Assembly (NCBI GenBank): GCA_048938005.1
Contig: JBHLMQ010000053.1
Coordinates: 1 to 21,494, forward strand
DNA: 21,494 bases
Source of the DNA: Promethearchaeota archaeon
Lineage (GTDB): Archaea; Asgardarchaeota; Lokiarchaeia; Sigyniarchaeales; SOKP01
Reading direction: 5' to 3'
Both the position numbers and the translations under genes were made by a program. How positions within the stretch are numbered: position 1 is the first letter of the stretch; each line of letters starts with the position of its first letter. This document shows, one piece after another, positions 3,955-19,488 of the stretch. The notes beneath the pieces were generated by a model. It saw nothing but the letters and a program-made list of their open reading frames with translations, was not told the origin of the DNA and did not search any database.

Positions 3955-4324
3955 GATAAATTCATTTTTTTTTTAGATATTTTTATAAAAAGATAATATT
4001 TATCCTTATATTCTTATTATTTAATTAATACATTTAAATTCACTTATCGATATTAATATTGGATTTACCCTTTAAAAATCTTGAATTTTCCTTAAGGCTA
4101 CGGGAGAAAATATTTGTAAAAAGAATAATAAAATCTTCCTTTTTTAATAAAATTGTCAAAAATACATGAGTTTGGATTCGTCTTATCTGATTTATAAGAA
4201 CCTAAATTGTTAACAAATATAAATATAAAATTTATATGTATAATAACTCTAATAATAGTTAATTTAATTTTATCTAAAAAATACATAAATTAATATCAAA
4301 AATAAATATTTGATCTCGATTAAT

Positions 4325-4900
4325 ATGAGACCATCTCGAGTGTTTAGATTGCTCTTTAGGATATTTATTGGAGTATTAACTCTATCTGTAACTGTAGTAT
4401 CTATACTTGGTGGAATATCCGCAGTTATGATCCTTACAAATCCAAATAATATTGGGATAGATCCTGGTGATATTAAATTTAATCTTGATATAAACAATGC
4501 TACACTCGAAATTGATAGTGTTAATTTTACCTTACCATTTAATCTCACTAATGCTGGTTACTTTGATTTAGAAAATCTTGAACTAAAAATAGATATCGCA
4601 TTGAATTATAGCAAAATAGATTATCCAACTCCTGGAGTGAATGAAACTATAGAAGTAAAAATTTTTTCAAATTCAACGAATTTTGGGACAATACCAAAAG
4701 GCACAACAGGGAATTTTACCTTTATAGGCGATACTTTTATTATGGGAAATTTTCCAAATTTCACTTCAGAAGTAAATTGGTTCAGAGGACCTCCCGCACT
4801 ACTATTTTATGTTAATCTAACCATTAGTTTAGATTATTCATTAAGGATGCATTCACTTTCAATAACTATACCTCGAATACCAGCAGGAGGATTTCCATAG
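4325..4900 (+). CDS. Membrane-anchored extracellular beta-sandwich protein (LEA_2/WHy-like), sequon-rich; hypothetical
   Basis: ATG at 4325 (track uses TTG at 4310); basic N-terminus, one hydrophobic helix, then alternating beta-strand pattern (FTLPFNLTNAGYFDL); 9 N-x-S/T sequons. Confidence 0.75.
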   Translation: MRPSRVFRLLFRIFIGVLTLSVTVVSILGGISAVMILTNPNNIGIDPGDIKFNLDINNATLEIDSVNFTLPFNLTNAGYFDLENLELKIDIALNYSKIDYPTPGVNETIEVKIFSNSTNFGTIPKGTTGNFTFIGDTFIMGNFPNFTSEVNWFRGPPALLFYVNLTISLDYSLRMHSLSITIPRIPAGGFP

Positions 4901-4906
4901 GAGGTG
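4900..4906 (+). promoter_or_regulatory. Shine-Dalgarno GGAGGTG for the 4913 CDS
   Basis: GGAGGTG 6 nt before ATG 4913, overlapping the upstream TAG. Confidence 0.8.
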
Positions 4907-4912
4907 CAATAA

Positions 4913-5392
4913 ATGGGTGCCGTTAAAAATATGGTAAAAGGTTTTATTTACACCGCAATTTATGTTGTTATCTCAATTGTGATTCCTTTAGCTACATTTA
5001 CATGGCTTCGGAGTATGGTAGTACAAGGCTTTCCCTTAGAATTTGAGCAACAAGAATATCAAAGCGTGATATTTTGGCTTATAGCATTTGGATTAGTCAT
5101 TAGCGGGTGTGCATTTTTCAAATATTCTTCTCCAAAACAGTCGATCCGAAAAGGTGTATTTGCGTTGATTCAAGTACTTGTTAATTGTTTATACTTATGG
5201 AGTTATAAATTCTCTGGAGCCACTAATATAGAATTTGTGATATTAAATTTTGGCTTTTTTTCTTTGAATATACAACAGATGATTTTGGTGTTTTTGGGCA
5301 TATACTTTCTCACAATCATTTTAAGAGTGTACGATATTATAGATTTTTCAGTTAACAGAGAAAAAATTAGAGAAAATAGAATGAAAGAATAA
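4913..5392 (+). CDS. Hypothetical integral membrane protein (about 4 TM)
   Basis: Four hydrophobic segments, charged C-terminal tail, strong SD, operonic spacing. Confidence 0.8.
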   Translation: MGAVKNMVKGFIYTAIYVVISIVIPLATFTWLRSMVVQGFPLEFEQQEYQSVIFWLIAFGLVISGCAFFKYSSPKQSIRKGVFALIQVLVNCLYLWSYKFSGATNIEFVILNFGFFSLNIQQMILVFLGIYFLTIILRVYDIIDFSVNREKIRENRMKE

Positions 5393-5394
5393 TA

Positions 5395-5401
5395 AAGGTG
5401 A
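5395..5401 (+). promoter_or_regulatory. Shine-Dalgarno AAGGTGA for the 5410 CDS
   Basis: AAGGTGA 8 nt before ATG 5410. Confidence 0.7.
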
Positions 5402-5409
5402 GCTAAAAT

Positions 5410-5796
5410 ATGATATTTCAAACAGATTTTTTACAAGTTCTTGCTGATATTATAGGCGCGATTCTATTAGGACTCTCGCCAATTATTGTACCAATAGGTG
5501 AATGGATGGTTGGTTGGATAACTGCTGCTACACAATTTCTAAAGGATAGTTTTAGCACTGATTTAACCATATATATTGTGATTTGCGTTATATTGATTGT
5601 ATCTGGTGTTATTGTTAACATCATTTGGCCTGGTGATATTAAAGGAACAATCTTTTCAAAAGGAAAAATCGAAGAATTAGAAGATAAACTAGAAATGAAG
5701 GGAGAAAGTATAGAAGATACTGTAAGAAGGTGCAAAGATTGCGGTAATCCTATTGGAGATGCTGAAGTGTGTTCTTTATGTGGAGCACGTAATTAA
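5410..5796 (+). CDS. Membrane protein with C-terminal zinc ribbon
   Basis: Hydrophobic N-terminal half; C-terminal CKDC-x9-CSLC. Confidence 0.8.
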   Translation: MIFQTDFLQVLADIIGAILLGLSPIIVPIGEWMVGWITAATQFLKDSFSTDLTIYIVICVILIVSGVIVNIIWPGDIKGTIFSKGKIEELEDKLEMKGESIEDTVRRCKDCGNPIGDAEVCSLCGARN

Positions 5797-5829
5797 AATA
5801 TTGATTTTTTTATTTAAACATTATATCTT

Positions 5830-5869
5830 AATTTTAAGAAGTAATACAGCTATTCTATTACTTAAAATT
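5830..5869. repeat. Inverted repeat / possible hairpin between convergent units
   Basis: AAGTAATA (5839-5846) / TATTACTT (5856-5863); can be extended with a 3-nt bulge using AATTTTAAG (5830-5838) / CTTAAAATT (5861-5869). Confidence 0.4.
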
Positions 5870-6028
5870 TTATATAACATTACAGGGAGTTAAATTATAA
5901 TCTGAAATATAGAGGATATTTCTTTCTAATTTACCTTTCATAGATTTTATGCCCTCAATTGCTTGCTCAATTAAGAAACTGCATTTTTTATTTCTTTTAG
6001 GTGAACCTATAAAAAACGTTATTTTCAT
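5870..6028 (-). pseudogene. Truncated flavodoxin-fold iron-sulfur flavoprotein / NADPH-FMN reductase family remnant (52 aa)
   Basis: Hand translation MKITFFIGSPKRNKKCSFLIEQAIEGIKSMKGKLERNILYISDYNLTPCNVI* matches the family N-terminus (MKI...GSPR...L...A.EG...l.D.ni.PC) and stops just after the first Cys of the expected CxxCxxC. Confidence 0.75.
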
Positions 6029-6152: not shown

Positions 6153-6911
6153 ATGGGCATTCATAACAATCTCGAAAGTTTTAAAAACAAAAGAGAACTT
6201 ATTGAAGAATTAAATTATTATAAATCTATCATTCTAAAAAAAGTAAAGAGTGGAGATTATAATTCTGCTTTAGAAAAAGTAAGATCAGCACTAGTATTGA
6301 TTGAAGAACATAAAGATTCTTTTCATATTGAAAGAGAGCTTAGTAATTTTTATGAGTTGAATAAAATAATTAATGATGAATTATCAAAACATAGAATGAT
6401 TTATGTGCGTCGTTTCAATAATCTTCTAAGGGAAAAGCTCGATGAATCTAATCTTGAAAATTTTTCAAAATTATTAGCTATGCTAAAGAATGACGTAGAC
6501 CACAATTTAGATAAGTATAATTTGGGAGATATTGGTATTAAAATTAATAAATATTTTAGATTTATTAAGAGAATGTATGAAATTCTGAGTTGTTATAAAG
6601 TTTTAAATTACCATGATGCTTCCGATAAAATTTTCGAATTTGTAAAAGAAATAAAATCTGAGAATTTCCCAAATCTGAAGATGCTGATTTCATTAACTTA
6701 TCAAAATTTAATAAGTAAAAGATTATTCGAGGTTTCAAAGGATTTTGATAAACTTAAACTTTCTGCTCTTTCTAAAAAAATGGCTATCAACCAGGATCGT
6801 TTAATTGATTTTATTAATTTAATAAAAGAGCGACCAAAAAGTCCAGTCAAAGATTATTTACCTCAAACTCAAGAAATCATATTTAAAAGGACAAGATTTT
6901 CCTCATTTTAA
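6153..6911 (+). CDS. Helical protein with putative C-terminal PCI (winged-helix) domain
   Basis: TPR-like SGDYNSALEKVRSAL; C-terminal YQNLISKRLFEVSKDFDKLKLSALSKKMAINQDRLIDFI...DYLPQTQEIIF follows the PCI consensus pattern. The CDS is secure; the domain call is by eye. Confidence 0.65.
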   Translation: MGIHNNLESFKNKRELIEELNYYKSIILKKVKSGDYNSALEKVRSALVLIEEHKDSFHIERELSNFYELNKIINDELSKHRMIYVRRFNNLLREKLDESNLENFSKLLAMLKNDVDHNLDKYNLGDIGIKINKYFRFIKRMYEILSCYKVLNYHDASDKIFEFVKEIKSENFPNLKMLISLTYQNLISKRLFEVSKDFDKLKLSALSKKMAINQDRLIDFINLIKERPKSPVKDYLPQTQEIIFKRTRFSSF

Positions 6912-6916
6912 AGGGA

Positions 6917-7840
6917 TTATAGCCCCCGATAAAACTCTGGTCGTAATATATTTTTATGTGTTAATCCGTAATTTATTGTACTTAAAATATTATCTTTTTC
7001 TCTATCCAAAATACCTTTAATTGGTAAATAATTTGATGCGTGATTACTTCGGAAGATACAATTTACACTCTTGTTATGAAATTCGATTTGATTTATGAAA
7101 ATTTTTAGCTCTTGAAGAATTTCTAATGAATTCATCTCTTGAAATTCTCCTTTTATCTTTTTTTTGAAGATTTCAGTCCCAGAAGGTATTATAAGTGTTA
7201 GGAATGCAATATACCAAATTCTATCATCATCAGGACAGATTTTATTAACCAAATCAGCTGATTCTAAAGCATGTTCTTTTGAAATCTCAGGATTATTTCC
7301 ACCACCAAGACCATTTATCAAAGTTGCTGATAAAGTTATCCCTGCTTTCATTAACTTCTTAGAAGCTTTAATGTGATCTGATTTATTTACTTCTTTATGT
7401 ACCATTTCAAGTAAACGATCAGAACCAGACTCAAAACCAACATAAGTGATTTTAAGACCCGCTTCGAACAACATTTTTAATTGCTCATCTGATTTCTTAA
7501 GTATATCTTTAGAGTGAGCATAAACACCGCACCTTTCTAAATTTTGAAAAAGGCTATATGCATATCTGGTTACATCCAACAATTTCTCTGTAGGTGTAAC
7601 CATCGCATTCCCATCCAAGAAAAAAATTCTTCTTACATTTGCTCCATATTGTTTTCTGGCAATATCTAAATCTTTTTTTACTAATTCTATATCTCTGATT
7701 AAAAATTTTTTGCGAAGATTTGACATACAAAAATCGCATTTAAATGTACAACCCTCAGTTAATTGAATTAATAGAGAATAGGCCTCGCTTGGGGGTCTGA
7801 ACACAGGTTGACAGTAATAGATTTCTTCTTTACTCTTCAT
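6917..7840 (-). CDS. Radical SAM protein (RPPxEA family), unknown substrate
   Basis: RPPSEAYSL, CTFKCDFC (CX3CX2C), YVGFESGSD, FRSNHASNY. Confidence 0.9.
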   Translation of the reverse strand: MKSKEEIYYCQPVFRPPSEAYSLLIQLTEGCTFKCDFCMSNLRKKFLIRDIELVKKDLDIARKQYGANVRRIFFLDGNAMVTPTEKLLDVTRYAYSLFQNLERCGVYAHSKDILKKSDEQLKMLFEAGLKITYVGFESGSDRLLEMVHKEVNKSDHIKASKKLMKAGITLSATLINGLGGGNNPEISKEHALESADLVNKICPDDDRIWYIAFLTLIIPSGTEIFKKKIKGEFQEMNSLEILQELKIFINQIEFHNKSVNCIFRSNHASNYLPIKGILDREKDNILSTINYGLTHKNILRPEFYRGL

Positions 7841-7895
7841 AGTTACTTGGAAAATATGATAATAAATAGAATTTAGAATTATTATCTAATTGAAT

Positions 7896-8597
7896 TCATT
7901 CCTCATCTTCTATATCATCAGCATCAACAGGTTTCTTTGGACAAGAAGTTAGATGCCTACCTAACCTCTGAAATGACTTGCCGCAATATGGGCAAACCTG
8001 TTTTTCTTTCACTTCTTTTTCAGCAGCCTCTCCTGTTGATCTCTTAGTGGTAGGTTTTTTTTTCTTTTTCTTCTTTTTTGCGGGTACGATGTCTTCTATG
8101 CTTGCATCATCAGGAGCAAACTCACAACTTTGAATATGTGTGGCTAAATCGTCAAATAGCTCTCCACAAAAGGGACACTCAACATCGGCAAATTCTTCTG
8201 AATCTTCAATATCCGCTTTTCCAGCTTTTCTCTTTTCAAATTTTAAAGGTATTTCTTCATCTTCTTCCTCGAATTCATCAATAGATAAATCAATTTCTTC
8301 ATCCAATTTTATTTCTGCAATTTCAAACTCTTCCAATTTTATTTCTTTCTCTTTAATTTTCTTTTCAGCTATTTTTTTACTTTCTTCATATAATTCGGAA
8401 AAACGACGATTATTTTTAGCTGGATCGTATATTGTACAAACTTGACAAACATAAGCTCGGCTACCCAAAATTAAATCTCTGGCAGGACAATAACATAAAG
8501 ATTGAAGACTATTACTAATATCACCTTTCGGTTCAAGATGTTTACATACGATTTTTCTTGAATATTTAATTTTTTGTTTGCGACGTGGCGTACTCAA
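7896..8597 (-). CDS. Multi-zinc-finger protein: Cys-rich N-terminus, acidic linker, two C2HC fingers, poly-Lys tract
   Basis: CPFC-x9-H-x3-C (8124-8177) and CPYC-x9-H-x3-C (7941-7994); K8 run; TTG start directly preceded by GGTGA. Confidence 0.8.
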   Translation of the reverse strand: MSTPRRKQKIKYSRKIVCKHLEPKGDISNSLQSLCYCPARDLILGSRAYVCQVCTIYDPAKNNRRFSELYEESKKIAEKKIKEKEIKLEEFEIAEIKLDEEIDLSIDEFEEEDEEIPLKFEKRKAGKADIEDSEEFADVECPFCGELFDDLATHIQSCEFAPDDASIEDIVPAKKKKKKKKPTTKRSTGEAAEKEVKEKQVCPYCGKSFQRLGRHLTSCPKKPVDADDIEDEE

Positions 8598-8694
8598 TCA
8601 CCAAAAGAAGTATGTAAAATAATTATTCCTAAAATTTAATTTTTATGAATTGCAGTCTAAGAAAACAAAAATATTTGAATATTCCGAATTAGAA

Positions 8695-10293
8695 TTAAAA
8701 ATTATAGTGAAGATTTTTGAGATCCGCTATAATTTTATTCTTTAATTCAAGATTATCAAGATTAGGGATTAATTCTTCAATGATATCTCTTAGTTCGACT
8801 ATTTTTTGAATAAGAAGTCCTGGTTTATTCCAAAAATCTAATCTTAATGGATACGTTGTTTTAATCGCCTTATTATAATTTTCTATTGCTGCACGATAAA
8901 ATAAGCACGCATTTTCTAGTTTATTTAACCTAGATTGATAAATTGTCCCAATTTTGTTAAAACACATTCCTGCTCCAGCAAAATCTCCTTCTTTTTCAAA
9001 ATCTATAGCTGCATCTTGAATTTTTTTTAATGCTTCTTCTAAAATTTCATTATCCCCTTTTTTTAAAAGTAAATATCCCATAATGTAATTTGCTACCCCT
9101 AAATAGAAAAGATGTTTTTCTTTTTTAGCAAGTTTGTAAAGATCATCAGCAAATTCTCCAGCAAATTTTAGATGATCATTTGAGATGCATTTTTGTGCTA
9201 CAATCCTTAATAAATCCAAAACTCTTTCAAAATCTTTAAGTTCTTTATATTTTTCAATACCAAATCTGAATTTTTCAATTCCAGTAAAAGAATCTTTGTT
9301 TTCAAAAGCATTATTTCCCTCATAAATTAATTGTTCAGCTTCTTCTTTTACCCTTAATTCTTTCTGTTTTTTCTTCGCATCAATCTCACCATAAAAAAAG
9401 TCATCTACACCAAATACAATATCTTCAGTCATAGGAATTTCAGTTAAGAAATCTTTACTCGAAATTTTACTGGATTCAGAGTCTGATTGAGATTTAAACT
9501 CTGGTGAAAATTGATCGCTTTCTTTTTGTAAATGGTTTTCTCTATAGGCGGATTGTAATGGCTTTCCTTCAGTGGCCAATGCGGACAGCTCTGATAAAAC
9601 ATTTGCGAAAAAATATTTGTTTAATCCATCTACAATATAATCAACTTTATGGTAATTATTGTCGTATTCCGGATCATTAATATCCATGTTTACATCAGTT
9701 ATTCTATAAATTTCAAAACCGGTATCATATTTTGTCATAGCATATTCAGAACCATCTTCACTTCTTATAACTTCCTCTTTTTTCTTTCCTAAAAGTGTAT
9801 GATCAAATACCAAACCACAAAAATCATCATTATTTTGTTGAAAACCTAGCTGGTTAAGCAAATCTATATAAGAAAAGAACAAGTTTAATCCGGGATGACT
9901 ATGGAACCATCCAACCATATAATACCCCTTTCCTTCTTTATCAAGTTTTTCCTGAATTTCCTCAATAAAACCATAATGCCTTTCGTCTAACTGAACATCT
10001 GTAGCGTGACCAAATGTTAAAGCTTCAGCGCGCTCTACATGTACTAATTCTTCATCAGAAGTACCTATTAAAATACCATATATTTCTTTCCATTGCTCCG
10101 GAGGTAATGATTTATTTGCATATCTACTTGCATATAAAATTATCGTCTTATAAGCATCTGCTCTAATAACTATGGGTTTACTTATTTTTTTTTGTTCTTT
10201 TTCATCAACGGGCTTTTCTTCGTCTCTTTTTAACTCTAATTTTTCTTTTTCTGATTCCTCGTTATTGTTTATGTTTTTGGGTTTTTCAGACAT
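8695..10293 (-). CDS. MPN+/JAMM metalloisopeptidase (Rpn11/CSN5-like) fused to C-terminal TPR/SNAP-like repeats
   Basis: KEIYGILIG (catalytic Glu) and GWFHSHPGLNLFFSYID (HxH-x7-S-x2-D, about 9862-9912); C-terminal half has TPR-like helices such as AGMCFNKIGTIYQSRLNKLENACLFYRAAIENY. Confidence 0.88.
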   Translation of the reverse strand: MSEKPKNINNNEESEKEKLELKRDEEKPVDEKEQKKISKPIVIRADAYKTIILYASRYANKSLPPEQWKEIYGILIGTSDEELVHVERAEALTFGHATDVQLDERHYGFIEEIQEKLDKEGKGYYMVGWFHSHPGLNLFFSYIDLLNQLGFQQNNDDFCGLVFDHTLLGKKKEEVIRSEDGSEYAMTKYDTGFEIYRITDVNMDINDPEYDNNYHKVDYIVDGLNKYFFANVLSELSALATEGKPLQSAYRENHLQKESDQFSPEFKSQSDSESSKISSKDFLTEIPMTEDIVFGVDDFFYGEIDAKKKQKELRVKEEAEQLIYEGNNAFENKDSFTGIEKFRFGIEKYKELKDFERVLDLLRIVAQKCISNDHLKFAGEFADDLYKLAKKEKHLFYLGVANYIMGYLLLKKGDNEILEEALKKIQDAAIDFEKEGDFAGAGMCFNKIGTIYQSRLNKLENACLFYRAAIENYNKAIKTTYPLRLDFWNKPGLLIQKIVELRDIIEELIPNLDNLELKNKIIADLKNLHYNF

Positions 10294-10431: not shown

Positions 10432-10986
10432 TTATTTAGATAATGCTTTAATAAATCTTGATTTTATCTTTTCTGGATGTAGAGGTATATTTTTAACTTG
10501 AGCTTTGCCTGGCATTGTTTTAATAACCACAAAATGACATCCTAATCCTAAATTTTTCAGTTTTGGAATGATCTCATCCTCTTTATCAATAAGGGTTATT
10601 GACTCAAAACCGGATCCTTCAGCAATAATTTCTAGCCTTGTTTTATTGCTTGTATATGATTTTTGATTTCCTGTAGAACCATAGGAAGAATTATCAACTA
10701 TTATTAATGTAAAGTTTTCTGGCTTATTATTTGCTATTGTGCTTAAGCTACCTAGATTCATTAGTATTGAACCATCACCATCAATACAAATAATTTTTCT
10801 TTCAGGGTGAGATATGGCTAAGCCAAAAGCTATTGAAGAAGAAAGGCCCATTGAACCCATCATATAGAAATTTTCAGTTCTATCTTTAATATTGTAAAGT
10901 TCCCTTGAAGGATCTCCAAGATTGCATACTACTAATTCATTTGTTAGTATTTTAACAATTTCTTTTAAAGCATCATATCTTTTCAT
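10432..10986 (-). CDS. comE: Sulfopyruvate decarboxylase beta subunit (ThDP-binding)
   Basis: NLGDPSREL, NFYMMGSMG, GDGS...DNSSYGSTGNQ ThDP motif. Confidence 0.9.
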   Translation of the reverse strand: MKRYDALKEIVKILTNELVVCNLGDPSRELYNIKDRTENFYMMGSMGLSSSIAFGLAISHPERKIICIDGDGSILMNLGSLSTIANNKPENFTLIIVDNSSYGSTGNQKSYTSNKTRLEIIAEGSGFESITLIDKEDEIIPKLKNLGLGCHFVVIKTMPGKAQVKNIPLHPEKIKSRFIKALSK

Positions 10987-11482
10987 TTTGTATCCTCCAT
11001 AAGGTTTTTTTAAGAATTACAGCTACACGCTTTTTAGTTTTCTTAGCTTTATTAACTGCTTTTATAATATTATTGACCTTTTCGGGAGAGTCTAAAATAT
11101 ATATTTCAAATGCTAAAAGTTTTAGTAGATCTATAGTTATTTGACCCATTGGCATTTGAGCAATGATTTTTTCTCCTTCTGCACCTCTATGGCTTATTAT
11201 AAATACAACTGGAATTTTATATAATTCAAGGAGTGATTTTATGGCATTTATAGAATTTCCTAATCCAGAATTTTGCATTAAAATTGCAGGGATTTTTCCT
11301 CCTAAATAAGCACCTGCGGCAATTCCAACTCCCTCTTCTTCACGGGTAACAGGTATATGGTGAATTTCTTTCTTTTCTTCAATAACTTCCAATAAGCCTT
11401 TAAGCATAATACAAGGGACTGAAAGAATTAAATTTATACCTGAATTTTTAATAGATTTATATAATTCTAAATCAACATCCAT
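10973..11482 (-). CDS. comD: Sulfopyruvate decarboxylase alpha subunit
   Basis: SVPC, VTREEEGVGIAAGAYLGG, MQNSGLGNSINA, SHRG, AQMPMG; overlaps comE by 14 nt. Confidence 0.9.
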   Translation of the reverse strand: MDVDLELYKSIKNSGINLILSVPCIMLKGLLEVIEEKKEIHHIPVTREEEGVGIAAGAYLGGKIPAILMQNSGLGNSINAIKSLLELYKIPVVFIISHRGAEGEKIIAQMPMGQITIDLLKLLAFEIYILDSPEKVNNIIKAVNKAKKTKKRVAVILKKTLWRIQNEKI

Positions 11483-11608
11483 AAAACTTCACATAAAACC
11501 AAAGTTGATTATTTTCTATATTTTATAAAATTGTTACTATCAAAAAAATATCTATAAAATATGAAAAAGTAAAGAATATTATATATAAAAAAATTTTTAC
11601 CTTTACCA

Positions 11609-12874
11609 ATGAAGGCGTTACTTTACGAATATAACATTTCGAGATTAGCATTGGCTCGCATTATAGGATTATTTAGTTTAAAGGGTTACCTCACTAAATT
11701 TGGGCCAATAAGGTTAAAAGAATTGCCTAAACCTGAAATTAAAGATAATGATTGGGTTGTAATCCGTACAAAATTTTGTGGAATTTGTGGAAGTGACCAT
11801 AAACAAGTTTTTCTTGATGGAAATCGTGATAATCCGATGACTGCCTTGATTTCATGGCCACAAATTTTAGGACATGAAGCAGTTGGATTTGTTGATAAAA
11901 TTGGTACCAAATCAAAAATTAAAGTTGGAGAACGTGTAGTACTTAATCCTTGGATAAGTTGTTTACCAAGAGAAATAAAGCCTCCTTGTATTGCATGTCA
12001 AGAAGGAAAAAATACTCTTTGTCGTAATTTTAATAAAGGTATTCTTACCACTGGTATACATACAGGGAATAGTAGTGATGCTACAGGAGGTTTTGCAGAA
12101 TATTTCCCTGCACATGAGTCTATGGCAATTCCCATACCAGATGATATCAATTGTGATCAAGCAACACTTTCAGATCCATTTTCAGTCGCATTTCATTCGG
12201 TATTAAAGGTCCACATTAAGCCAGGAACAGTATGTGCAGTTTATGGTTGTGGAAATTTAGGTCTTCTTACAATTCTAATTTTGAAAGAAGTCTTTGAGGA
12301 TGTACAAGTAGTTGCAATTTCACGTTTTTCCCATCAAGCGTCTATGGCAAAAAAATTTGGCGCTGATTTAGTCATTGATTCTACTCCTACACATAGAATT
12401 ATTGAAAAAATCGCAGATTATGTAAATTGTAATATTTATTATCTAAAAAAGAAAAAACCGTGGTTAATTGAGGGTGTTGATTTTTTGTTTGATACAGTGG
12501 CATCTCCTGAAACTCTTGAAACTGGGATTCGTATTGTAAAAGCGAGAAAGATAGATTCTGATAGTAATCATATATCATCTGGAGTTATAGTCGTTACTGG
12601 AGTTTCTTCCCCAAAACGATATGAATGGACTCCATGGTATTTCAAAGAGATCGATATAATTGGAAGCAATGCTTTTGCAATTGAAGAATTCGAAGGTAAA
12701 CGCGAACATGCCTATTTTCACTATTTTCGCTTTTTACAAGAAGGGCGCCTTGATCCTACACCAATGATTACTCATCGATTTCCCTTAGAAGTATATAAAA
12801 AAGCTTTTGTTACAGCACGAGCACAGAAAAAATTTAAATCGATAAAGGTTGCATTTTCATTTGATGGTAATTAG
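11609..12874 (+). CDS. Zn-dependent medium-chain dehydrogenase/reductase (MDR), paralog 1
   Basis: CGICGSD, ILGHE, structural-Zn Cys cluster, YGCGNLG Rossmann motif, ITHRFPL. Confidence 0.92.
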   Translation: MKALLYEYNISRLALARIIGLFSLKGYLTKFGPIRLKELPKPEIKDNDWVVIRTKFCGICGSDHKQVFLDGNRDNPMTALISWPQILGHEAVGFVDKIGTKSKIKVGERVVLNPWISCLPREIKPPCIACQEGKNTLCRNFNKGILTTGIHTGNSSDATGGFAEYFPAHESMAIPIPDDINCDQATLSDPFSVAFHSVLKVHIKPGTVCAVYGCGNLGLLTILILKEVFEDVQVVAISRFSHQASMAKKFGADLVIDSTPTHRIIEKIADYVNCNIYYLKKKKPWLIEGVDFLFDTVASPETLETGIRIVKARKIDSDSNHISSGVIVVTGVSSPKRYEWTPWYFKEIDIIGSNAFAIEEFEGKREHAYFHYFRFLQEGRLDPTPMITHRFPLEVYKKAFVTARAQKKFKSIKVAFSFDGN

Positions 12875-12887
12875 GGGTGAAGAATCA

Positions 12888-14147
12888 ATGAAAAAAAACA
12901 GAAAAGAAAAAACAATGCCTGCTCTTGTCTTTGAATTGAAATTACGTAAATTAATGAAAGCATACTTACGCGGAAAAAGAGAACGTTCTGGATATTGGAA
13001 AAAGGGCGGGCCAGTTAACATAAAACATGTTCCTATTCCTTCACTCGTTGCTGAGGATTGGGTAATAGTAAAAACGGTATATTGTGGGATATGTGGTAGT
13101 GATATGAAAGAATTAACATTAAGCGGAGCTCGTGATAATCCTCTACGTTCATTAATTACTTTTCCGCAAATTTTAGGACATGAGCCTGTGGGAATAATCG
13201 ATCAAGTAGGGAAAAACGTAACTAAAGTTAAAATTGGTGATAGAGTTGCAATAAGCCCTTGGTTTCCATGTTCATCACGTGGAATTGATACAGAATGTTC
13301 AAGGTGTCAGATTGGAGATTATACACATTGTCAAAATTTTCAAAGAGGAATTTTACCTATTGGGATGCATCTTGGAGCTACTAAAGGTCTTGGAGGTTTT
13401 GCTCCATATATTTCTGTACATGAATCGCAATGTTTTTTAATTCCCGAAAATGTATCATTTGATCAAGCTGTCTTGGCGGATCCATTTGCTGTAGCTTTTC
13501 ATTCACTTTTAATTTTAGATCCAAATCCAGATTCTACCATTTTGGTTTTTGGATTAGGAGTAATAGGATTATTAGTAGTAATGGCTCTCAAAAATATATT
13601 TAAAGTTAAAAATGTAATTGGTGTTGGTAGATATCAATTTCAAACAGAAACAGCATTAAATTTAGGCATTAAACATGTTTTTATAAACGAGAGGGAGCCT
13701 TTAATAAAAGAAATTGCGGATTATATGAACGCTGAACTTTATATCCCTGACCATGGTGTAGTATGGGCTATGGATGGAGTAGATGGTATTATTGATACAA
13801 TTGCTTCAGCAGAAACTTTAGAAGTTGGAATGAGAATTTTAACAACTCAAGGGAAACTAGTCTTTCTTGGTGTAAGCACTCCGAGAAGATGTGAAAGTAC
13901 ACCTCATTATTTTAAAGAACTCGAAATTATTGGTTCCAATGCATTTTCAATCGAAAATTTTGAAGGTAAGAGAGCCCATGCCTATGAATTTTTTTTAGAA
14001 TTTATAGCTAATAAAAGAATTGACACCTCGATATTTGTTACACATAAATTTCTACTGGAACAGTATAAAGAAGCTTTTGATTCATTAGCATATAAATCAA
14101 AATCTCATGCTATCAAGGTTTTATTTGAGTATTCTGAAAATCATTGA
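12888..14147 (+). CDS. Zn-dependent MDR dehydrogenase, paralog 2
   Basis: CGICGSD, ILGHE, four-Cys cluster, FGLGVIG; start moved to ATG 12888, which follows SD GGGGTGA (12874-12880). Confidence 0.92.
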   Translation: MKKNRKEKTMPALVFELKLRKLMKAYLRGKRERSGYWKKGGPVNIKHVPIPSLVAEDWVIVKTVYCGICGSDMKELTLSGARDNPLRSLITFPQILGHEPVGIIDQVGKNVTKVKIGDRVAISPWFPCSSRGIDTECSRCQIGDYTHCQNFQRGILPIGMHLGATKGLGGFAPYISVHESQCFLIPENVSFDQAVLADPFAVAFHSLLILDPNPDSTILVFGLGVIGLLVVMALKNIFKVKNVIGVGRYQFQTETALNLGIKHVFINEREPLIKEIADYMNAELYIPDHGVVWAMDGVDGIIDTIASAETLEVGMRILTTQGKLVFLGVSTPRRCESTPHYFKELEIIGSNAFSIENFEGKRAHAYEFFLEFIANKRIDTSIFVTHKFLLEQYKEAFDSLAYKSKSHAIKVLFEYSENH

Positions 14148-14268
14148 TTTAAATTCAAAAATGATAAAATTTCTTCAGAATAGAAATTATATTTATCAAA
14201 TTTACCAAGTTTTAATTAAAATCTGTTATTATTTTGTTTTATTCAGATAATTAAATAAAGTGAAAAAA

Positions 14269-14631
14269 ATGGTTATTGAAATAATAGCTGCAATTTATTG
14301 TATTTTAATAGGTATTGCAATTATAATCATGTGGATCTTATTAATAAGGAGGAGAGAAGTACCTGAACTTAATACTAAACCAATACAAATATATTTTCAT
14401 TTAGTTTCTGAATTTCTAACAGGTATAATTCTTATAATTGGAGCTATAGGATTGTTTATAAATCAAGCATGGGGAATAGCATTATTTTTCCTTTCTATTG
14501 GAATGGTGATTTATTCTATGATAAATGCAGCAGGGTATTATGGACAATTAAAAGAATGGCCAATGTTCATTATGTTTATTGTTTTTGCTATTGTTTCTGC
14601 TTTAGTCGCTACTGCTGTTATCTTTAGTTAA
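14269..14631 (+). CDS. Small 4-TM membrane protein, hypothetical
   Basis: Four hydrophobic helices; HLVSE and INAAGYY polar motifs; ATG 14269 (alternative GTG 14260). Confidence 0.8.
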   Translation: MVIEIIAAIYCILIGIAIIIMWILLIRRREVPELNTKPIQIYFHLVSEFLTGIILIIGAIGLFINQAWGIALFFLSIGMVIYSMINAAGYYGQLKEWPMFIMFIVFAIVSALVATAVIFS

Positions 14632-14655
14632 GGTAAAGTAAATAATTTTTTAAAT

Positions 14656-15870
14656 TCATATTACTCCTTTTTTTTTGAAATCTCGGATCTCCTCATCTGA
14701 ATGACCCATATTCTTAAGGATCTCATTTGTGTGTTGACCGAGTTTTGGTGCAAAATCTCTTATTTTCAAAGGTGTTCGTGAATATTTTATTGGTGAAGCT
14801 ATATTGTGGATTTTCCCAAATCTGGGATGCTCCATCTCAACAACCATATTTCGTGCCTTTATCTGAGGGTCCTCACATCCTTCAGCAAAAGATTTAACTG
14901 GCATGACACATGCATCTAAATATTTAAAAATTTCAATCCAATCTTTCTGATTTTTCTTCAAAAATTCTTTTTGTATCTCTTCAAAAACGTGTTCCCTTTC
15001 TTTTCCTTTTACAGTTTGTTTAAGAGTTAAATCCTCACGATCAAGACCTTTACAAAATTCTCGCCAGAATTTTACTTCAATAATTCCTACAGACACAAAT
15101 TTATTATCTTTCGTCTTATAAACAGAATAAAAAGGAAAATCCCCATGAATGGGATTATGTGTTTCAATGCCATCATTTAAATCTTTGGAGAAATGATGTG
15201 CAGCTACAAGAGGCATAAAAGAAAAAACACAATCTGTCATAGCAATATCAATAAATTGCCCTTTTCTTTTAGGATTATTATCTCTTTCAATAATGGCTCC
15301 AAGTATCCCTATTGTTGATACTAATCCTCCACCTATATCAGCAGCTTGAACACCCGGAACTATTGGTTTTCTTTCTTGAGTTTCATTACCATGAACCATT
15401 CGTTCTTTATTTAAATCCAAAATTCCACATATTCCAATATAATTGAGATCATGACCTGCTATTTGCTCATATGGCCCATATTGACCATAACCTGTTAAAG
15501 AACAGCAAATAATTGATGGATTTATTGAAGCTAAGGTATCATAGTCAATTTTTAATTTTTTAGTAACCTTAGGACGATAAGTATCAAGAACAATATCAGC
15601 TTCTTTAACTAATTCATAAAAAATCTTTAGTGCTTTTTCTTTTTTCAAGTTTAGAGTAATAGCTTTTTTATTCCTATTAAGAATGGAATTAAAAGCACTT
15701 TCACGATATCTTCCTTTTTGAAAGAATGGAGGTGGATGACCATAAGGATATTGGGGATCTTCTATTCGGATAACGTTTGCCCCAAGATCAGAGAGTATCA
15801 TTGAGCAATATGGTCCAGGTAACATTCTTGTTAGATCTAATACAGTTATCCCTTCTAAAGGTAATGACAT
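14656..15870 (-). CDS. Family III CoA-transferase (CaiB/BaiF), alpha-methylacyl-CoA racemase-like
   Basis: PLEGITVLDLTRMLPGP, LNRNKK, TGYGQYGP, GHDLNY, ADIGGG, APKLGQHT; likely start ATG at 15870 (MSLPLEG). Confidence 0.92.
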   Translation of the reverse strand: MSLPLEGITVLDLTRMLPGPYCSMILSDLGANVIRIEDPQYPYGHPPPFFQKGRYRESAFNSILNRNKKAITLNLKKEKALKIFYELVKEADIVLDTYRPKVTKKLKIDYDTLASINPSIICCSLTGYGQYGPYEQIAGHDLNYIGICGILDLNKERMVHGNETQERKPIVPGVQAADIGGGLVSTIGILGAIIERDNNPKRKGQFIDIAMTDCVFSFMPLVAAHHFSKDLNDGIETHNPIHGDFPFYSVYKTKDNKFVSVGIIEVKFWREFCKGLDREDLTLKQTVKGKEREHVFEEIQKEFLKKNQKDWIEIFKYLDACVMPVKSFAEGCEDPQIKARNMVVEMEHPRFGKIHNIASPIKYSRTPLKIRDFAPKLGQHTNEILKNMGHSDEEIRDFKKKGVI

Positions 15871-16000
15871 AATAATTAAAAAATTAGATAAAATAAAAGT
15901 ATAGATCAAAAGTTTGAAATCAAAGGATTGGATATGTTTATTGAAACATATTTAGCACTTCTCTTTTTGATAATTGAAAAAGAAAAAAAAGAGTTGAATA

Positions 16001-16513
16001 TTATAATTCAATTATTTCAGATTCCATTTTTTCGATATCTATAATTGCAAAAGTCGCTTTTCCAGTTAAATAGCCACAAACTTCACCAGGATTTATCACT
16101 AAAACACCATTATCCAATTTTTTATTGGAAAGCGAATGTGTATGTCCTGATAAAATTATATCAAATCTTCCCGAATTTGCTAAGGCATCTATTGTTTCTT
16201 GTCTTGGCATGTGAGATGCAAAGATTCTCTTACCTCCCAATTCCATAATTAATTCATTACCATTTTGAGCAAATTCACATATTTGTCCCAGGTTTTGTTT
16301 TAAAAATAATTTTTCTCCATCATTATTTCCAAAAACTCCATAAAATTTTTTTTTAATTGATTCATTTAACCCATCAAACCATTTTTTTACGAAAGGTGCC
16401 ACATAATCTCCACAGTGTATTAGCACATCCACATTTCTTTCATTTATTATAGATACTGCTTTCAATATATTATTCATATGATCATGTGTATCACTCATTA
16501 CTGCAATTTTCAT
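16001..16513 (-). CDS. Metallophosphoesterase, MJ0936/YfcE/Vps29 family
   Basis: SDTH, HCGD, GNND, GHTH, INPG; SD AAGGAG upstream. Confidence 0.92.
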   Translation of the reverse strand: MKIAVMSDTHDHMNNILKAVSIINERNVDVLIHCGDYVAPFVKKWFDGLNESIKKKFYGVFGNNDGEKLFLKQNLGQICEFAQNGNELIMELGGKRIFASHMPRQETIDALANSGRFDIILSGHTHSLSNKKLDNGVLVINPGEVCGYLTGKATFAIIDIEKMESEIIEL

Positions 16514-16629
16514 TTCTTTATTATCTCCTTTTAGTTTAAAATTAATAGAATTTAGATATAATTAAATTACATTATTATATGTTTTATATTAATAATTTAT
16601 ATTAATAATGAACATTTTATGAATTAGGC

Positions 16630-17703
16630 ATGATTGAAGATTACTTTAAAACAGAAATACCATTAATTAGCAGAGAATTGAAAAAATATTTTAGTAAATT
16701 ATATAAAACGGAAAAGGATGTTCTTCTTAAAGATTTTATAACTCAATTAGAAGAATTTATTTTAAATGAGAAAGCAAAGAGAATTCATCCTATATTATTG
16801 ACAGCCGCTTTTAAAGGAATTGTGAATCCTATGTTTTTAGAAGATTTCATAGAACAAATTCGTGAAGTATCGATTTCAGTTGAATTATTGCATAGTGGGC
16901 ACTTAATACATGATGATCTTTTAGATAATGATATTACAAGAAGAGGTAAACCTACATTTCATATGCAATTAAAAGGTGAATTAAATCAAGTTTATAAGGA
17001 TCTCAATATCCCAAATAAGGATGATATTATTAAATTATATGGAAATAATATGAGTATTCTAGGAGGAACCCAAGGATATCTTTTAGGTTTAGATATTTTG
17101 AAATCTTCAAAATTTCCAGAACAATTAAAGTTGTTAGCTATTAATGAATATATAGAAGCAATGGATTACTTAATGAAAGGACAGCTAATAGAAGAATACA
17201 TGAATTATAATAATATTACTATGACATTGGAACAATATTTGAATATAACTGAATGTCAAAAAGCCAGAATATTTGAGAAATCCACTAAAATTGGAGCGAT
17301 CTTGGCTAAAGGAAATCTCCATTATCAAATCAAACCTCTAAGTGATGCAATGTTAAGTATTGGTCAAGCTCATGCCATTCGCGATGATATACTTGATATT
17401 GAAAATGACATTAAAGGAAAGCAGAAAAAAATTATTTATATTTTAGCTGTGCAAAATACAGATGAAGACCAGTCTAAACGGTTGAATGAGTTATTTCATA
17501 AAGATAATTTAGTAAAGAATGATATTGAAGAAGTGAAAGATATATTTACTAAAACCAATGCTCTAATGATTGCTGAACATTTAGCAAGAAATTTTATTGA
17601 GCAATCCAAAAGTAATCTAAAAGATATCTATCCTGATTTAAATAAACAAGAAAAATTATTCTTTAACGAATTCTCGGATTTTGTATATCTCCGGGAGTAT
17701 TAA
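16630..17703 (+). CDS. Trans-polyprenyl diphosphate synthase family protein, divergent
   Basis: FARM HDDLLD-NDITRRGKPT, GQ motif, SARM RDDILD. Confidence 0.88.
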   Translation: MIEDYFKTEIPLISRELKKYFSKLYKTEKDVLLKDFITQLEEFILNEKAKRIHPILLTAAFKGIVNPMFLEDFIEQIREVSISVELLHSGHLIHDDLLDNDITRRGKPTFHMQLKGELNQVYKDLNIPNKDDIIKLYGNNMSILGGTQGYLLGLDILKSSKFPEQLKLLAINEYIEAMDYLMKGQLIEEYMNYNNITMTLEQYLNITECQKARIFEKSTKIGAILAKGNLHYQIKPLSDAMLSIGQAHAIRDDILDIENDIKGKQKKIIYILAVQNTDEDQSKRLNELFHKDNLVKNDIEEVKDIFTKTNALMIAEHLARNFIEQSKSNLKDIYPDLNKQEKLFFNEFSDFVYLREY

Positions 17704-17719
17704 GTATTTTTAATTTATT

Positions 17720-18316
17720 TTATATTACAACATAAGGGAATTGTTGTTTCTTTAACATAAGATTATTTAACTCTTTAAAAACCTCAAGAACATTAAAATT
17801 TAATAAGGCAGATGTTCTATAAAATCCATCCAATTTTTTTTCTTCCACATATTTATAAATTAATTCTTCAACAACTTTCTCAGAATCAGGAGTCTTTTTC
17901 AATAAATCACTCTTACTCCCAACTAAGATAATAGGAATTTTTGAATCTACTGCGTTTAATATTAATTGTTCGTACCAAAAATCTAACTGATCAAAAGAGG
18001 AGTAATTTACCAAATCAAATACTAATAACGCTCCATTAGCACCATCTATAAACTTAGGGATCAAAGGTGCAAATCTCTCCTGTCCACCGAAATCAAATAT
18101 AGAATTTACGATAAAATTTTCTTTTAAGTCATCAGGATTTTTCTCAAAATTGATTTTTAAATAAACGGAATGAAAGTTTATTCCTATTGTTGGAGATGTG
18201 TCGAAATTAAATGAGTTAAAGCAAAATCTATTAAAAAGTGAAGATTTACCTACAGCGCTAGCACCACAAATTACTACTTTAAAACTATAGAGTATATCTT
18301 TTCGATCATAGCTCAT
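17720..18316 (-). CDS. Rab-like small GTPase (Ras superfamily)
   Basis: G1 GASAVGKS, G2 PTIG, G3 DFGGQERF, G4 SKSD, G5 TSAL. Confidence 0.93.
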   Translation of the reverse strand: MSYDRKDILYSFKVVICGASAVGKSSLFNRFCFNSFNFDTSPTIGINFHSVYLKINFEKNPDDLKENFIVNSIFDFGGQERFAPLIPKFIDGANGALLVFDLVNYSSFDQLDFWYEQLILNAVDSKIPIILVGSKSDLLKKTPDSEKVVEELIYKYVEEKKLDGFYRTSALLNFNVLEVFKELNNLMLKKQQFPYVVI

Positions 18317-18579: not shown

Positions 18580-19488
18580 ATGCTTACTAAAATCCCACCC
18601 GAACAAATTGTAATAAGACCTCCAGTAGAAGCATATTCTGTACTAATTCCTGTAACGGGGGGATGTTCATGGAATAAATGCCGTTTCTGCGGAACCTATA
18701 AAGGAATTTATGGAGTTACCCAAGATTATGCGATAAGACCTTTAGAAGATATAAAAAAAGATATTGATAAATATGCTCAATTGAATTATCACGGATTTCC
18801 GGTTTTTTTAGCGGGAGGTAATCCTACGTCGGCACCAACTGATTATTTGGTTGAAATTATCAAATATGTAAGACTTAAAATGAGAAATGTTCAACGGGTT
18901 AGCTGCTATGCTAAATCGCTAGATATTTTAAGAAAGTCAGATGAAGAATTAAAAAAGTTAGCTGAAGCTGGATTAGATATTGTTTATATGGGATTAGAGA
19001 GTGGTTCAAATAAGATATTAAGAATTATGAAAAAAGGAACCAATGCTGAATCTATGATAAAAGCAGGGAAGAAAATTTTAAATGCTGGAATTAAACTATC
19101 GTTATACATCATTTTAGGTTTAGGAAGTTATGAATATTCAGAAGACCATGTCAAGGAGACCGCAAGAGTGTTAACTGAAATAAATCCAACCATATTTAGG
19201 TTCCGAACATTAAATATTATGCCAGGTACTCCTCTTTGGGATGAATGGAAATCAGGCAATTTTAAATTATTAAGTCCGGTCGAAAATTTAAAAGAGGAAA
19301 GGGATATCATCGCAAATTTAGGAGAAAATGTGACTTCTCAAGTCTTTAACGACCATATATCTAATTATTGCGCAATAGAATCTTCAAATATAAAGGAAGA
19401 TCGAGAAATGTTTATAAAAACCTTAGATTCTTATATTAATGATCCAAGAATCCAGAATCTGCTAAGAAAAAACTTAACTAGAATGTAG
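18580..19488 (+). CDS. Radical SAM protein (RPPxEA family), paralog of 6917-7840
   Basis: RPPVEAYSV, CSWNKCRFC (CX4CX2C), YMGLESGS, NDHISNY. Confidence 0.9.
   Translation: MLTKIPPEQIVIRPPVEAYSVLIPVTGGCSWNKCRFCGTYKGIYGVTQDYAIRPLEDIKKDIDKYAQLNYHGFPVFLAGGNPTSAPTDYLVEIIKYVRLKMRNVQRVSCYAKSLDILRKSDEELKKLAEAGLDIVYMGLESGSNKILRIMKKGTNAESMIKAGKKILNAGIKLSLYIILGLGSYEYSEDHVKETARVLTEINPTIFRFRTLNIMPGTPLWDEWKSGNFKLLSPVENLKEERDIIANLGENVTSQVFNDHISNYCAIESSNIKEDREMFIKTLDSYINDPRIQNLLRKNLTRM

Follow-up and report, generated by a model that had tools for sequence, protein, structure and literature searches.

A predicted Rpn11-like isopeptidase with a TPR arm and an optional PCI-fold neighbour, probably not parts of one machine, in a Lokiarchaeia-type Asgard archaeon

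Contig JBHLMQ010000053.1 of a Promethearchaeota archaeon (assembly GCA_048938005.1) was analysed over 21,494 nucleotides, and this whole stretch is called the window. Four neighbouring genes at positions 6153-10293 encode a PCI-fold protein (P0001), a radical S-adenosylmethionine (radical SAM) enzyme (P0002), a protein with two C2HC zinc fingers (P0003) and a protease, P0004, in which an MPN+ domain with a JAMM active site is joined to a tetratricopeptide repeat (TPR) domain. The probable explanation is that the region is not one machine: P0004 would be a targeted isopeptidase of the Rpn11-like kind that carries a TPR arm and has the zinc-finger protein as its partner, and the lineage-restricted PCI-fold protein beside it would be independent. 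Finding the MPN and PCI genes side by side does not count as evidence that their products form a complex; the gene for the PCI-fold protein is a passenger, and an optional one, in a block of frozen gene order. Both building blocks are present in this Lokiarchaeia-type archaeon, which encodes a true PCI-fold protein together with several MPN+ proteins of the Rpn11-like kind, and the locus yields a testable candidate for a targeted archaeal deubiquitinase with a likely zinc-finger partner. Additionally, the 'ParD antitoxin' name that many database records give to members of the PCI-fold family is corrected. The four genes are as follows.

6153-6911, plus strand: P0001, 252 amino acids, modelled as a free-standing PCI-fold protein (helical repeats and a C-terminal winged helix), basic
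6917-7840, minus strand: P0002, 307 amino acids, radical SAM enzyme
7896-8597, minus strand: P0003, 233 amino acids, TTG start, two C2HC fingers
8695-10293, minus strand: P0004, 532 amino acids, MPN+ domain, disordered linker and TPR domain

On the minus strand, P0004, P0003 and P0002 form a run in which 97 and 55 bases separate successive genes. The plus-strand gene P0001 is convergent with P0002, the two stop codons being 5 bases apart, and is preceded by an AT-rich spacer of 357 bases. A Pfam scan of the 20 window proteins found no ubiquitin, E1 or E2 domain. An earlier sequence-only reading had described four open reading frames at these positions, with an intact JAMM motif in a JAMM-TPR fusion, two C2HC fingers, a PCI-like C-terminus in a gene that is convergent and not co-transcribed, an intervening radical SAM gene, and a window without genes for ubiquitin, E1 or E2. 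Each of these descriptions agrees with the results given here. The window is AT-rich (GC 0.25-0.35), its contig (C91) belongs to a genome of 3.72 Mb in 101 contigs (G000), and homologues of the window proteins carry the source labels Promethearchaeota or Lokiarchaeia.

The protease features an N-terminal catalytic part and a C-terminal helical part.

9571-10176, minus strand: MPN+ domain of P0004, residues 40-241
9862-9903, minus strand: JAMM motif H131-x-H133-x7-S141-x2-D144, with E70 at 10084-10086
8713-9387, minus strand: TPR superhelix of P0004, residues 303-527, ten helices, without a winged helix

P0004 matches the Pfam family JAB (PF01398) with 46.9 bits against a cut-off of 22.5 (E 2.9e-12). 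The JAMM residues E70, H131-S-H133, S141 and D144 are complete, and the alignment shows that they are invariant across 28 orthologues. The best sequence relative of solved structure is CsRpn11 (6fjv, E 4.8e-11), followed by CSN5, Rpn11 and BRCC36 (33 distinct sequences at E<=0.01). The AlphaFold2 model, with a mean predicted local distance difference test (pLDDT) score of 72.1, consists of the MPN domain at residues 40-241, which is of moderate confidence, a disordered segment at 242-302 and ten helices at 303-527. Foldseek matched it to CSN5 (1.0e-7) and Rpn11 (2.3e-7), and VIA-align placed the MPN part on Rpn11 (4o8x_B) with a Z of 16.0 over 158 residues and a root-mean-square deviation (rmsd) of 4.4. 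By its sequence P0004 is an intact Rpn11/CSN5-type MPN+ protein and a predicted isopeptidase. The closest fold to residues 314-509 is the Pins/LGN TPR (VIA-align Z 18.9, rmsd 2.8, 172 residues), and further TPR matches were to Pins/LGN (17.5), SNAP/Sec17 (16.3), NASP (15.9), kinesin light chain KLC1 (15.1) and RapH (15.0). In Pfam the C-terminal part gave weak Rgg_C and SNAP matches, every one below cut-off. As modelled, the C-terminal domain is a TPR of the peptide-binding type and not a PCI domain. The MPN-linker-TPR arrangement is a new architecture.

A profile scan of the 3.72 Mb genome found seven JAB genes, one of which is on the contig of P0004. Contig C97 (about 11588-16986, locus L065) carries ubiquitin-like open reading frames (ORFs; 149, 262 and 111 amino acids), a winged-helix regulator, a ThiF E1 (415 amino acids), a UQ_con E2 (175 amino acids) and a 275-amino-acid JAB protein. 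Contig C11 (about 104424-112049, locus L064) carries three adjacent JAB paralogues (466, 490 and 301 amino acids) next to a 734-amino-acid ChlI/MoxR-type AAA + VWA protein, and the 466-amino-acid paralogue has an apolipoprotein-like helical tail. P0004 is one of several specialised JAB paralogues, and its likely substrates would be conjugates made by the C97 system.

Outside the order, the best matches to P0004 are 501-597 amino acids long, have only the MPN part in common with it and have different neighbours. In four other families of the class, no homologue of the radical SAM, zinc-finger or P0001 proteins lies near the best match (BLAST, E<=1e-3), and these proteins are probably different paralogues. 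At loci L068-L072, from three other families of the class, JAB proteins of 577-597 amino acids lie beside a run of four similarly sized genes, which at L069 are MoaC, MoaB-like and two MoeA genes by Pfam and at L068, L071 and L072 were judged by gene size alone. The L069 neighbours hint at a link between the long JAB proteins and molybdopterin synthesis. At L067, a 388-amino-acid protein with VWA and RING-finger domains (Ssl1-like, 4860-6026, plus strand) converges on a 501-amino-acid JAB protein with a coiled, apolipoprotein-like tail (6160-7665, minus strand), a possible E3-deubiquitinase pair.

In all 14 loci examined, the first conserved gene downstream of the protease encodes the zinc-finger protein P0003.

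8124-8177, minus strand: first C2HC finger of P0003, C141-x2-C144-x9-H154-x3-C158
7941-7994, minus strand: second C2HC finger of P0003, C202-x2-C205-x9-H215-x3-C219

In the alignment the second finger is invariant in 11/11 orthologues, and the first is kept in nine of the ten orthologue rows that cover the region, being lost in L059, the most distant one. Elsewhere P0003 (isoelectric point (pI) 5.3) has an N-terminus that is conserved, basic and rich in Cys, a linker of strongly acidic character and, between the fingers, a run of lysines. Matches to 14 zinc-finger or DUF families of Pfam were all below cut-off, none of them UBZ-type, and the family profile found a viral CCHC finger as its best match in the PDB (E 0.0037). 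With these results, it stays an idea that the two C-x2-C-x9-H-x3-C fingers, which have no UBZ profile match, may read ubiquitin. The earlier proposal that P0003 is the partner of the protease is consistent with the gene order, and none of the results here ties its fingers to ubiquitin.

P0002 matches the Pfam family Radical_SAM (PF04055) with 59.3 bits against a cut-off of 29.5 (E 7e-16) and contains the cluster motif C31-x3-C35-x2-C38. All NCBIfam subfamily matches were far below their cut-offs, and neither a SPASM nor a peptide-recognition domain was matched. Searches of the PDB gave weak matches to FtsZ (E about 0.006-0.06) and MoaA (0.05-0.07), which are taken as uninformative. The radical SAM gene adjoins the zinc-finger gene in 11/11 loci whose contig extends far enough, once on the opposite strand (L059). 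Together, the protease, zinc-finger and radical SAM genes make up the steady unit of the locus. A second radical SAM gene lies in the window at 18580-19488 on the plus strand (302 amino acids, Pfam 5e-23); it has ~35% identity to P0002 orthologues and holds its place in the collinear gene block across sister genera. In three sister-genus loci an NADPH-dependent flavin mononucleotide (FMN) reductase of 207-209 amino acids, assigned by Pfam, lies beside the radical SAM gene on the same strand, in the slot that P0001 occupies in the window. It is a possible electron donor for the radical SAM enzyme.

L055, 3653-4276, minus strand: FMN reductase
L057, 9458-10081, plus strand: FMN reductase
L058, 3557-4186, minus strand: FMN reductase

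A rival reading of the trio does without ubiquitin conjugates: for instance, the radical SAM enzyme would modify P0003 or a peptide that the JAMM protease then processes, or the trio would mature a sulfur carrier of the MoaD/SAMP type. Such a reading is consistent with the adjacency in all testable loci, the added FMN reductase, the lack of ubiquitin, E1 and E2 genes in the window and the best P0004 match at L069, which lies beside Pfam-confirmed MoaC, MoaB and MoeA genes (with neighbours alike in size at L068, L071 and L072). However, the nearest matches of the P0004 MPN domain are Rpn11, CSN5 and CsRpn11, which act as isopeptidases on ubiquitin and NEDD8. P0002 lacks a SPASM or peptide-recognition match and reaches MoaA only at the E values given above, and at L059 the radical SAM gene is on the other strand. 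A target other than ubiquitin is held to be unlikely, and a targeted isopeptidase acting on ubiquitin-like conjugates is preferred.

The PCI fold of P0001 was judged from its model and from its family. P0001 itself has no match to the Pfam PCI family (PF01399) at E<=0.1, and a scan of the whole genome with PF01399 at E<=1 was silent on its contig. The AlphaFold2 model, built from 31 homologues, has a pLDDT of 88.6 and a predicted template modelling score (pTM) of 0.75. It features seven helices followed by a winged helix, and it ends at the last winged-helix strand, 241-244 of 252 residues, with no later helix.

6669-6884, plus strand: winged helix of P0001, residues 173-244 (helices 173-195, 203-210 and 214-224; strands 200-202, 232-236 and 241-244)

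Foldseek, the check that had been proposed for this protein, agrees with a PCI-like C-terminus: among the matches listed, 46/46 are COP9 signalosome (CSN), 26S proteasome, eIF3/43S or TREX-2 entries, with a best E of 4.3e-3 and none at <=0.001, so that the fold match is a specific one, though weak in its E value. The best VIA-align match is the lid subunit 5mpb_Q (Z 11.4, rmsd 4.8, 172 residues). Residues 76-252 align to lid, CSN2 and CSN4 chains with Z 11.4 to 9.6 over 153-172 residues and to Rpn6 (9.0) and Rpn12 (8.6), values within the range in which the tool cautions about helical proteins, so that the sequence evidence carries weight. The isolated winged helix matches CSN2 (9is6_B) with a Z of 8.7 (rmsd 2.1, 65 residues) and the CSN7 PCI domain (3chm_A) with a Z of 8.1. 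In the sequences of the family, PF01399 is matched by 8 of 14 diverse members at E<=10, more than any other Pfam family. With 23.7 bits the orthologue P0247 exceeds the cut-off of 22, and the orthologues P0244 (19.5 bits) and P0118 (18.8) fall below it; all three match on residues about 169-228. One homologue is named 'PCI domain-containing' in UniRef. In the ESM Atlas, P0001 matches, besides its own cluster, a Thorarchaeota cluster with PF01399 on 19% of its members (score 0.82), which is a lead only. The family profile found no PCI chain among its nine matches to PDB sequences at E<=10. Since the model, the fold matches and the PF01399 matches of family members agree, P0001 is accepted, on this modelled evidence, as a genuine PCI-fold protein.

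Two other assignments were considered and set aside. For residues 3-80, VIA-align against 48,161 representative chains put three-helix bundles, MIT domains and TPR domains on top (Z 9-9.7), and a reading of the N-terminus as an MIT domain was dropped, its matches lying within the noise range for helical proteins. The PDB sequence matches of P0001 and its profile, to ParD fragments and, in a coiled-coil-like manner, to SidC (E 0.0023), were dismissed as chance.

Many NCBI records call homologues of P0001 'type II toxin-antitoxin system ParD family antitoxin'. If this name were correct, P0001 would be a ParD-type antitoxin (PF03693), and its sole Pfam match is indeed ParD_antitoxin, which residues 21-58 hit with 21.2 bits (cut-off 21); ParD chains also appear at E 0.11-0.38 in the PDB sequence search. 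Of the 81 profile positions the Pfam match covers 38, and in the model it falls within two long helices. No strand precedes the first modelled helix, which begins at residue 13, and the model, lacking a ribbon-helix-helix N-terminus, contradicts the reading. ParD is matched by 5/14 family members, fewer than match PCI, and no toxin gene adjoins P0001, whose neighbours are the radical SAM gene and genes for small membrane proteins. Neither the model nor the neighbourhood fits the ParD name, and that P0001 is such an antitoxin is scarcely credible.

A second reading treats P0001 as a winged-helix regulator of its neighbours, at the level of transcription or by RNA binding, with the PCI-like shape being merely a shared fold. 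In eIF3 and TREX-2, nucleic acid is bound by the winged helices of the PCI proteins. The winged-helix part of P0001 is strongly basic (pI 10.06 for residues 173-252, 9.4 for the whole protein), and the AT-rich spacer upstream of the gene is consistent with a regulatory role. However, no DNA-binding helix-turn-helix family of Pfam matches P0001, and the best structural matches extend over 160-220 residues of PCI subunits, beyond the winged helix. Were P0001 to regulate the protease operon, it should accompany the operon in every genome, and it does not. A regulator of this kind is considered very unlikely, and P0001 is taken in what follows as an independent PCI-fold protein.

The distribution of P0001 is narrow. 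A search of 1.84 billion representative proteins with its profile gave 38 matches at E<=0.001, none longer than 253 amino acids, with no fused form and no link to eukaryotic PCI proteins. No paralogue was found in the genome, where the next best profile match has an E of 0.14. By profile search, P0001 occurs in 36/61 genomes of the class (G000 included), all from one family, and in 4/16 genera sampled: 16/16 genomes of genus g1, 4/4 of g3, 14/18 of g4 and 1/1 of g8. The same search found it in 0/10 genomes of g2, g5, g6 and g7 and in 0/11 genomes of four other families. Among the same-family genomes without P0001, 13/14 retain a match to P0004 at E<=1e-84, and therefore the protease does not need P0001.

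The gene order around the locus was compared among relatives. A collinear block of ~15 kb includes unrelated metabolic genes. Downstream, the genes for a coenzyme A (CoA)-transferase, a metallophosphoesterase, a polyprenyl synthase, a Ras-like GTPase and the second radical SAM enzyme keep the same order in L055, L073, L075 and others, and three upstream membrane-protein genes also hold their order in sister genera. Since the unrelated genes of the block are equally collinear, the linkage of P0001 to the protease carries little weight. In six loci without P0001 whose contig spans the slot, it is filled by the FMN reductase (L055, L057, L058), a 208-amino-acid gene (L075, similar to the FMN reductase in size, the only property compared) or a polytopic membrane protein with ten membrane segments (L054), or it holds nothing (L076). 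G051 has both a 207-amino-acid gene and P0001 there. The slot between the two convergent units is thus variable in content, with P0001 as one optional occupant.

The sequence-only reading had joined these genes into a minimal lid- or signalosome-like deconjugation complex, with P0001 as the PCI subunit, P0004 as the MPN+ subunit and P0003 as the adaptor. As a rival explanation this would hold at least in the genera that have P0001. Three features underlie the assembly of the lid, the CSN and eIF3: the pairing of an MPN+ with an MPN- protein, a horseshoe formed by the winged helices of the PCI subunits, and a bundle to which every subunit contributes C-terminal helices. At this locus, no MPN- partner for P0004 was found among the neighbouring genes, the contig having a single JAB match. 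No second PCI-fold gene was identified in the window beside P0001 (20 proteins by Pfam, 2 of them folded). For a joining of winged helices, P0004 has no winged helix and P0001 has no paralogue, and for a common bundle P0001 has no helix after its winged helix. A hidden PCI-like part was sought by comparing the profile of the P0001 family with those of the JAB-TPR family and of the JAB proteins of 577-597 amino acids from other families, which gave probabilities of 2.9% and 0.3% and revealed no such part and no fusion. With one MPN gene, a sole identified PCI-fold gene, no trailing helix and no winged helix in P0004, the parts of the canonical assembly are missing. Judged by these features, the lid/CSN mode of assembly is not available at the locus, and any contact between P0001 and P0004 would be of another kind. 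Co-folding of P0004 (37-532) and P0001 with alignments scored 0.00 in two runs without controls, with a mark of 0.32; the tool gave no answer, and the result is counted neither for nor against binding.

Several observations weigh against treating P0001 as independent. In the 33 other genomes in which a single-protein search found P0001, a P0004 orthologue is on the same contig in 29, at a distance of 1.8-3.3 kb and convergent, and the proximity holds even where P0001 has 30% identity. The remaining four have P0001 and the protease on separate contigs, and in two of these (G051, G056) the contig ends after the zinc-finger gene. With seven JAB genes in 3.72 Mb, any given gene would lie within 4 kb of one ~1.5% of the time by a rough estimate, so that a PCI-fold gene is unlikely to be this near one by chance. 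Additionally, P0001 is basic (pI 9.4), P0004 (pI 5.0) and the P0003 linker are acidic, and an electrostatic contact of P0001 with either is conceivable. Together with the confirmed PCI fold and MPN+ domain, these points are what the complex has in its favour. Against it, the genes for P0001 and the protease are convergent and not co-transcribed, the two were not inherited jointly, P0001 was found in four of the 16 genera sampled and the protease persists in 13/14 same-family genomes without it. The linkage in related genomes that the sequence-only reading looked for is present, but it does not discriminate within a block that is collinear throughout. The minimal complex is not supported by these results and is judged quite unlikely. 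In a looser arrangement, P0001 would have been recruited in the four genera as an optional subunit, regulatory or scaffolding, of the TPR-tethered isopeptidase and P0003. MPN and PCI proteins would then be partners in an archaeon, in an assembly built unlike the eukaryotic lid. This is also judged improbable, to a degree similar to the regulator reading. If it were true, MPN and PCI modules would already have been combined before eukaryotes.

The favoured explanation is of separate functions. From the folds, motifs, gene order and presence or absence of genes, we infer an enzyme activity, a ubiquitin-like substrate, a pairing of TPR and zinc finger and a role for P0001. The locus belongs to a block of genes that has kept a frozen order within a single family of Lokiarchaeia-type Asgard archaea, and the functional unit within it would be the minus-strand run of P0004, P0003 and P0002. 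P0004 is a paralogue of the Asgard Rpn11-like deubiquitinase, with its intact catalytic site tied by a flexible linker to an LGN-type peptide-binding TPR. It would most likely be a targeted isopeptidase that strips ubiquitin-like modifiers, supplied by the ubiquitin/E1/E2 operon of contig C97, from particular substrates, and the TPR domain would pick the substrate or a partner. The charged and always adjacent P0003 may be an adaptor, a regulator or a substrate, and the radical SAM enzyme P0002 appears to travel with the protease-zinc-finger unit. P0001 probably acts independently, through its basic winged helix, as a binder of nucleic acid or protein.

Other genes of the window were observed as follows.

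4310-5796, plus strand: three small genes (196, 159 and 128 amino acids) with predicted membrane segments, in an order kept family-wide
10432-14631, between the protease and the CoA-transferase: split genes of a thiamine pyrophosphate (TPP) enzyme (184 + 169 amino acids), two zinc-type alcohol dehydrogenase-like genes and a 123-amino-acid ORF
17720-18316, minus strand: Ras/Roc-family small GTPase (Pfam Ras 7.1e-32), one of the eukaryote-like signature genes of Asgard archaea

The 159-amino-acid middle product of 4310-5796 resembles DUF4386-type proteins, and the 128-amino-acid product also features a C-terminal zinc-ribbon-like motif. These genes have no connection to the protease and PCI finding. 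Parts of 10432-14631 recur in relatives, namely the TPP genes in L056, L062 and L063 (at L063 together with the 123-amino-acid ORF) and the alcohol dehydrogenase-like genes in L074, and the stretch is absent from L055, L057 and L075. Its presence in some relatives and absence in others indicates an insertion or deletion inside the otherwise collinear block. The GTPase gene is collinear with the block in L055, L057, L073, L075 and L076.

In the literature, Asgard ESCRT-linked proteins are mentioned as having PCI-like winged helices (PMC10936438). Full-text searches found no archaeal MPN-PCI gene pair or MPN-TPR fusion, the supplementary tables (PMC10936438 and the Asgard gene-cluster catalogues), which may list these families, being outside the search. 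Among known systems, the closest to P0004 is CsRpn11 of Caldiarchaeum subterraneum (PDB 6FJU/6FJV, PMC6043591). CsRpn11, Rpn11, CSN5 and BRCC36 have, like P0004, the MPN+ fold with a full JAMM motif (VIA Z for Rpn11 16.0, CsRpn11 14.2 and CSN5 14.1), and CsRpn11 also has no MPN- partner gene alongside. In contrast to P0004, none of them has a 60-residue disordered linker and a 225-residue TPR. P0004 also lies outside the ubiquitin/E1/E2 operon of its genome, which has its own 275-amino-acid JAB protein.

The PCI subunits Rpn6, Rpn7, CSN2, CSN4, CSN7, Rpn12 and PCID2 feature helical repeats followed by a winged helix, as P0001 does. Most of them are much longer than the 252 amino acids of P0001, which has no helix after the winged helix. 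P0001 has no sequence link to eukaryotic PCI proteins by profile search, and it is single-copy and optional in its lineage.

The TPRs of LGN/Pins, kinesin light chain, NASP and Rap/Rgg bind extended peptides in a groove. They have a fold in common with residues 314-530 of P0004, however none of them is fused to a protease, and the P0004 TPR shows no sequence-level membership in the LGN, KLC, NASP or Rap families, its Pfam matches being below cut-offs. AMSH/STAMBP resembles P0004 in that a JAMM isopeptidase is joined to a helical protein-binding module, and the catalytic domain of S. pombe Sst2 matches that of P0004 with a Z of 12.4. The Pfam scan of the window proteins showed no endosomal sorting complex required for transport (ESCRT) gene adjoining P0004. 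The helical MIT domain of AMSH is small and N-terminal, whereas the TPR of P0004 has ten helices and comes after the catalytic domain.

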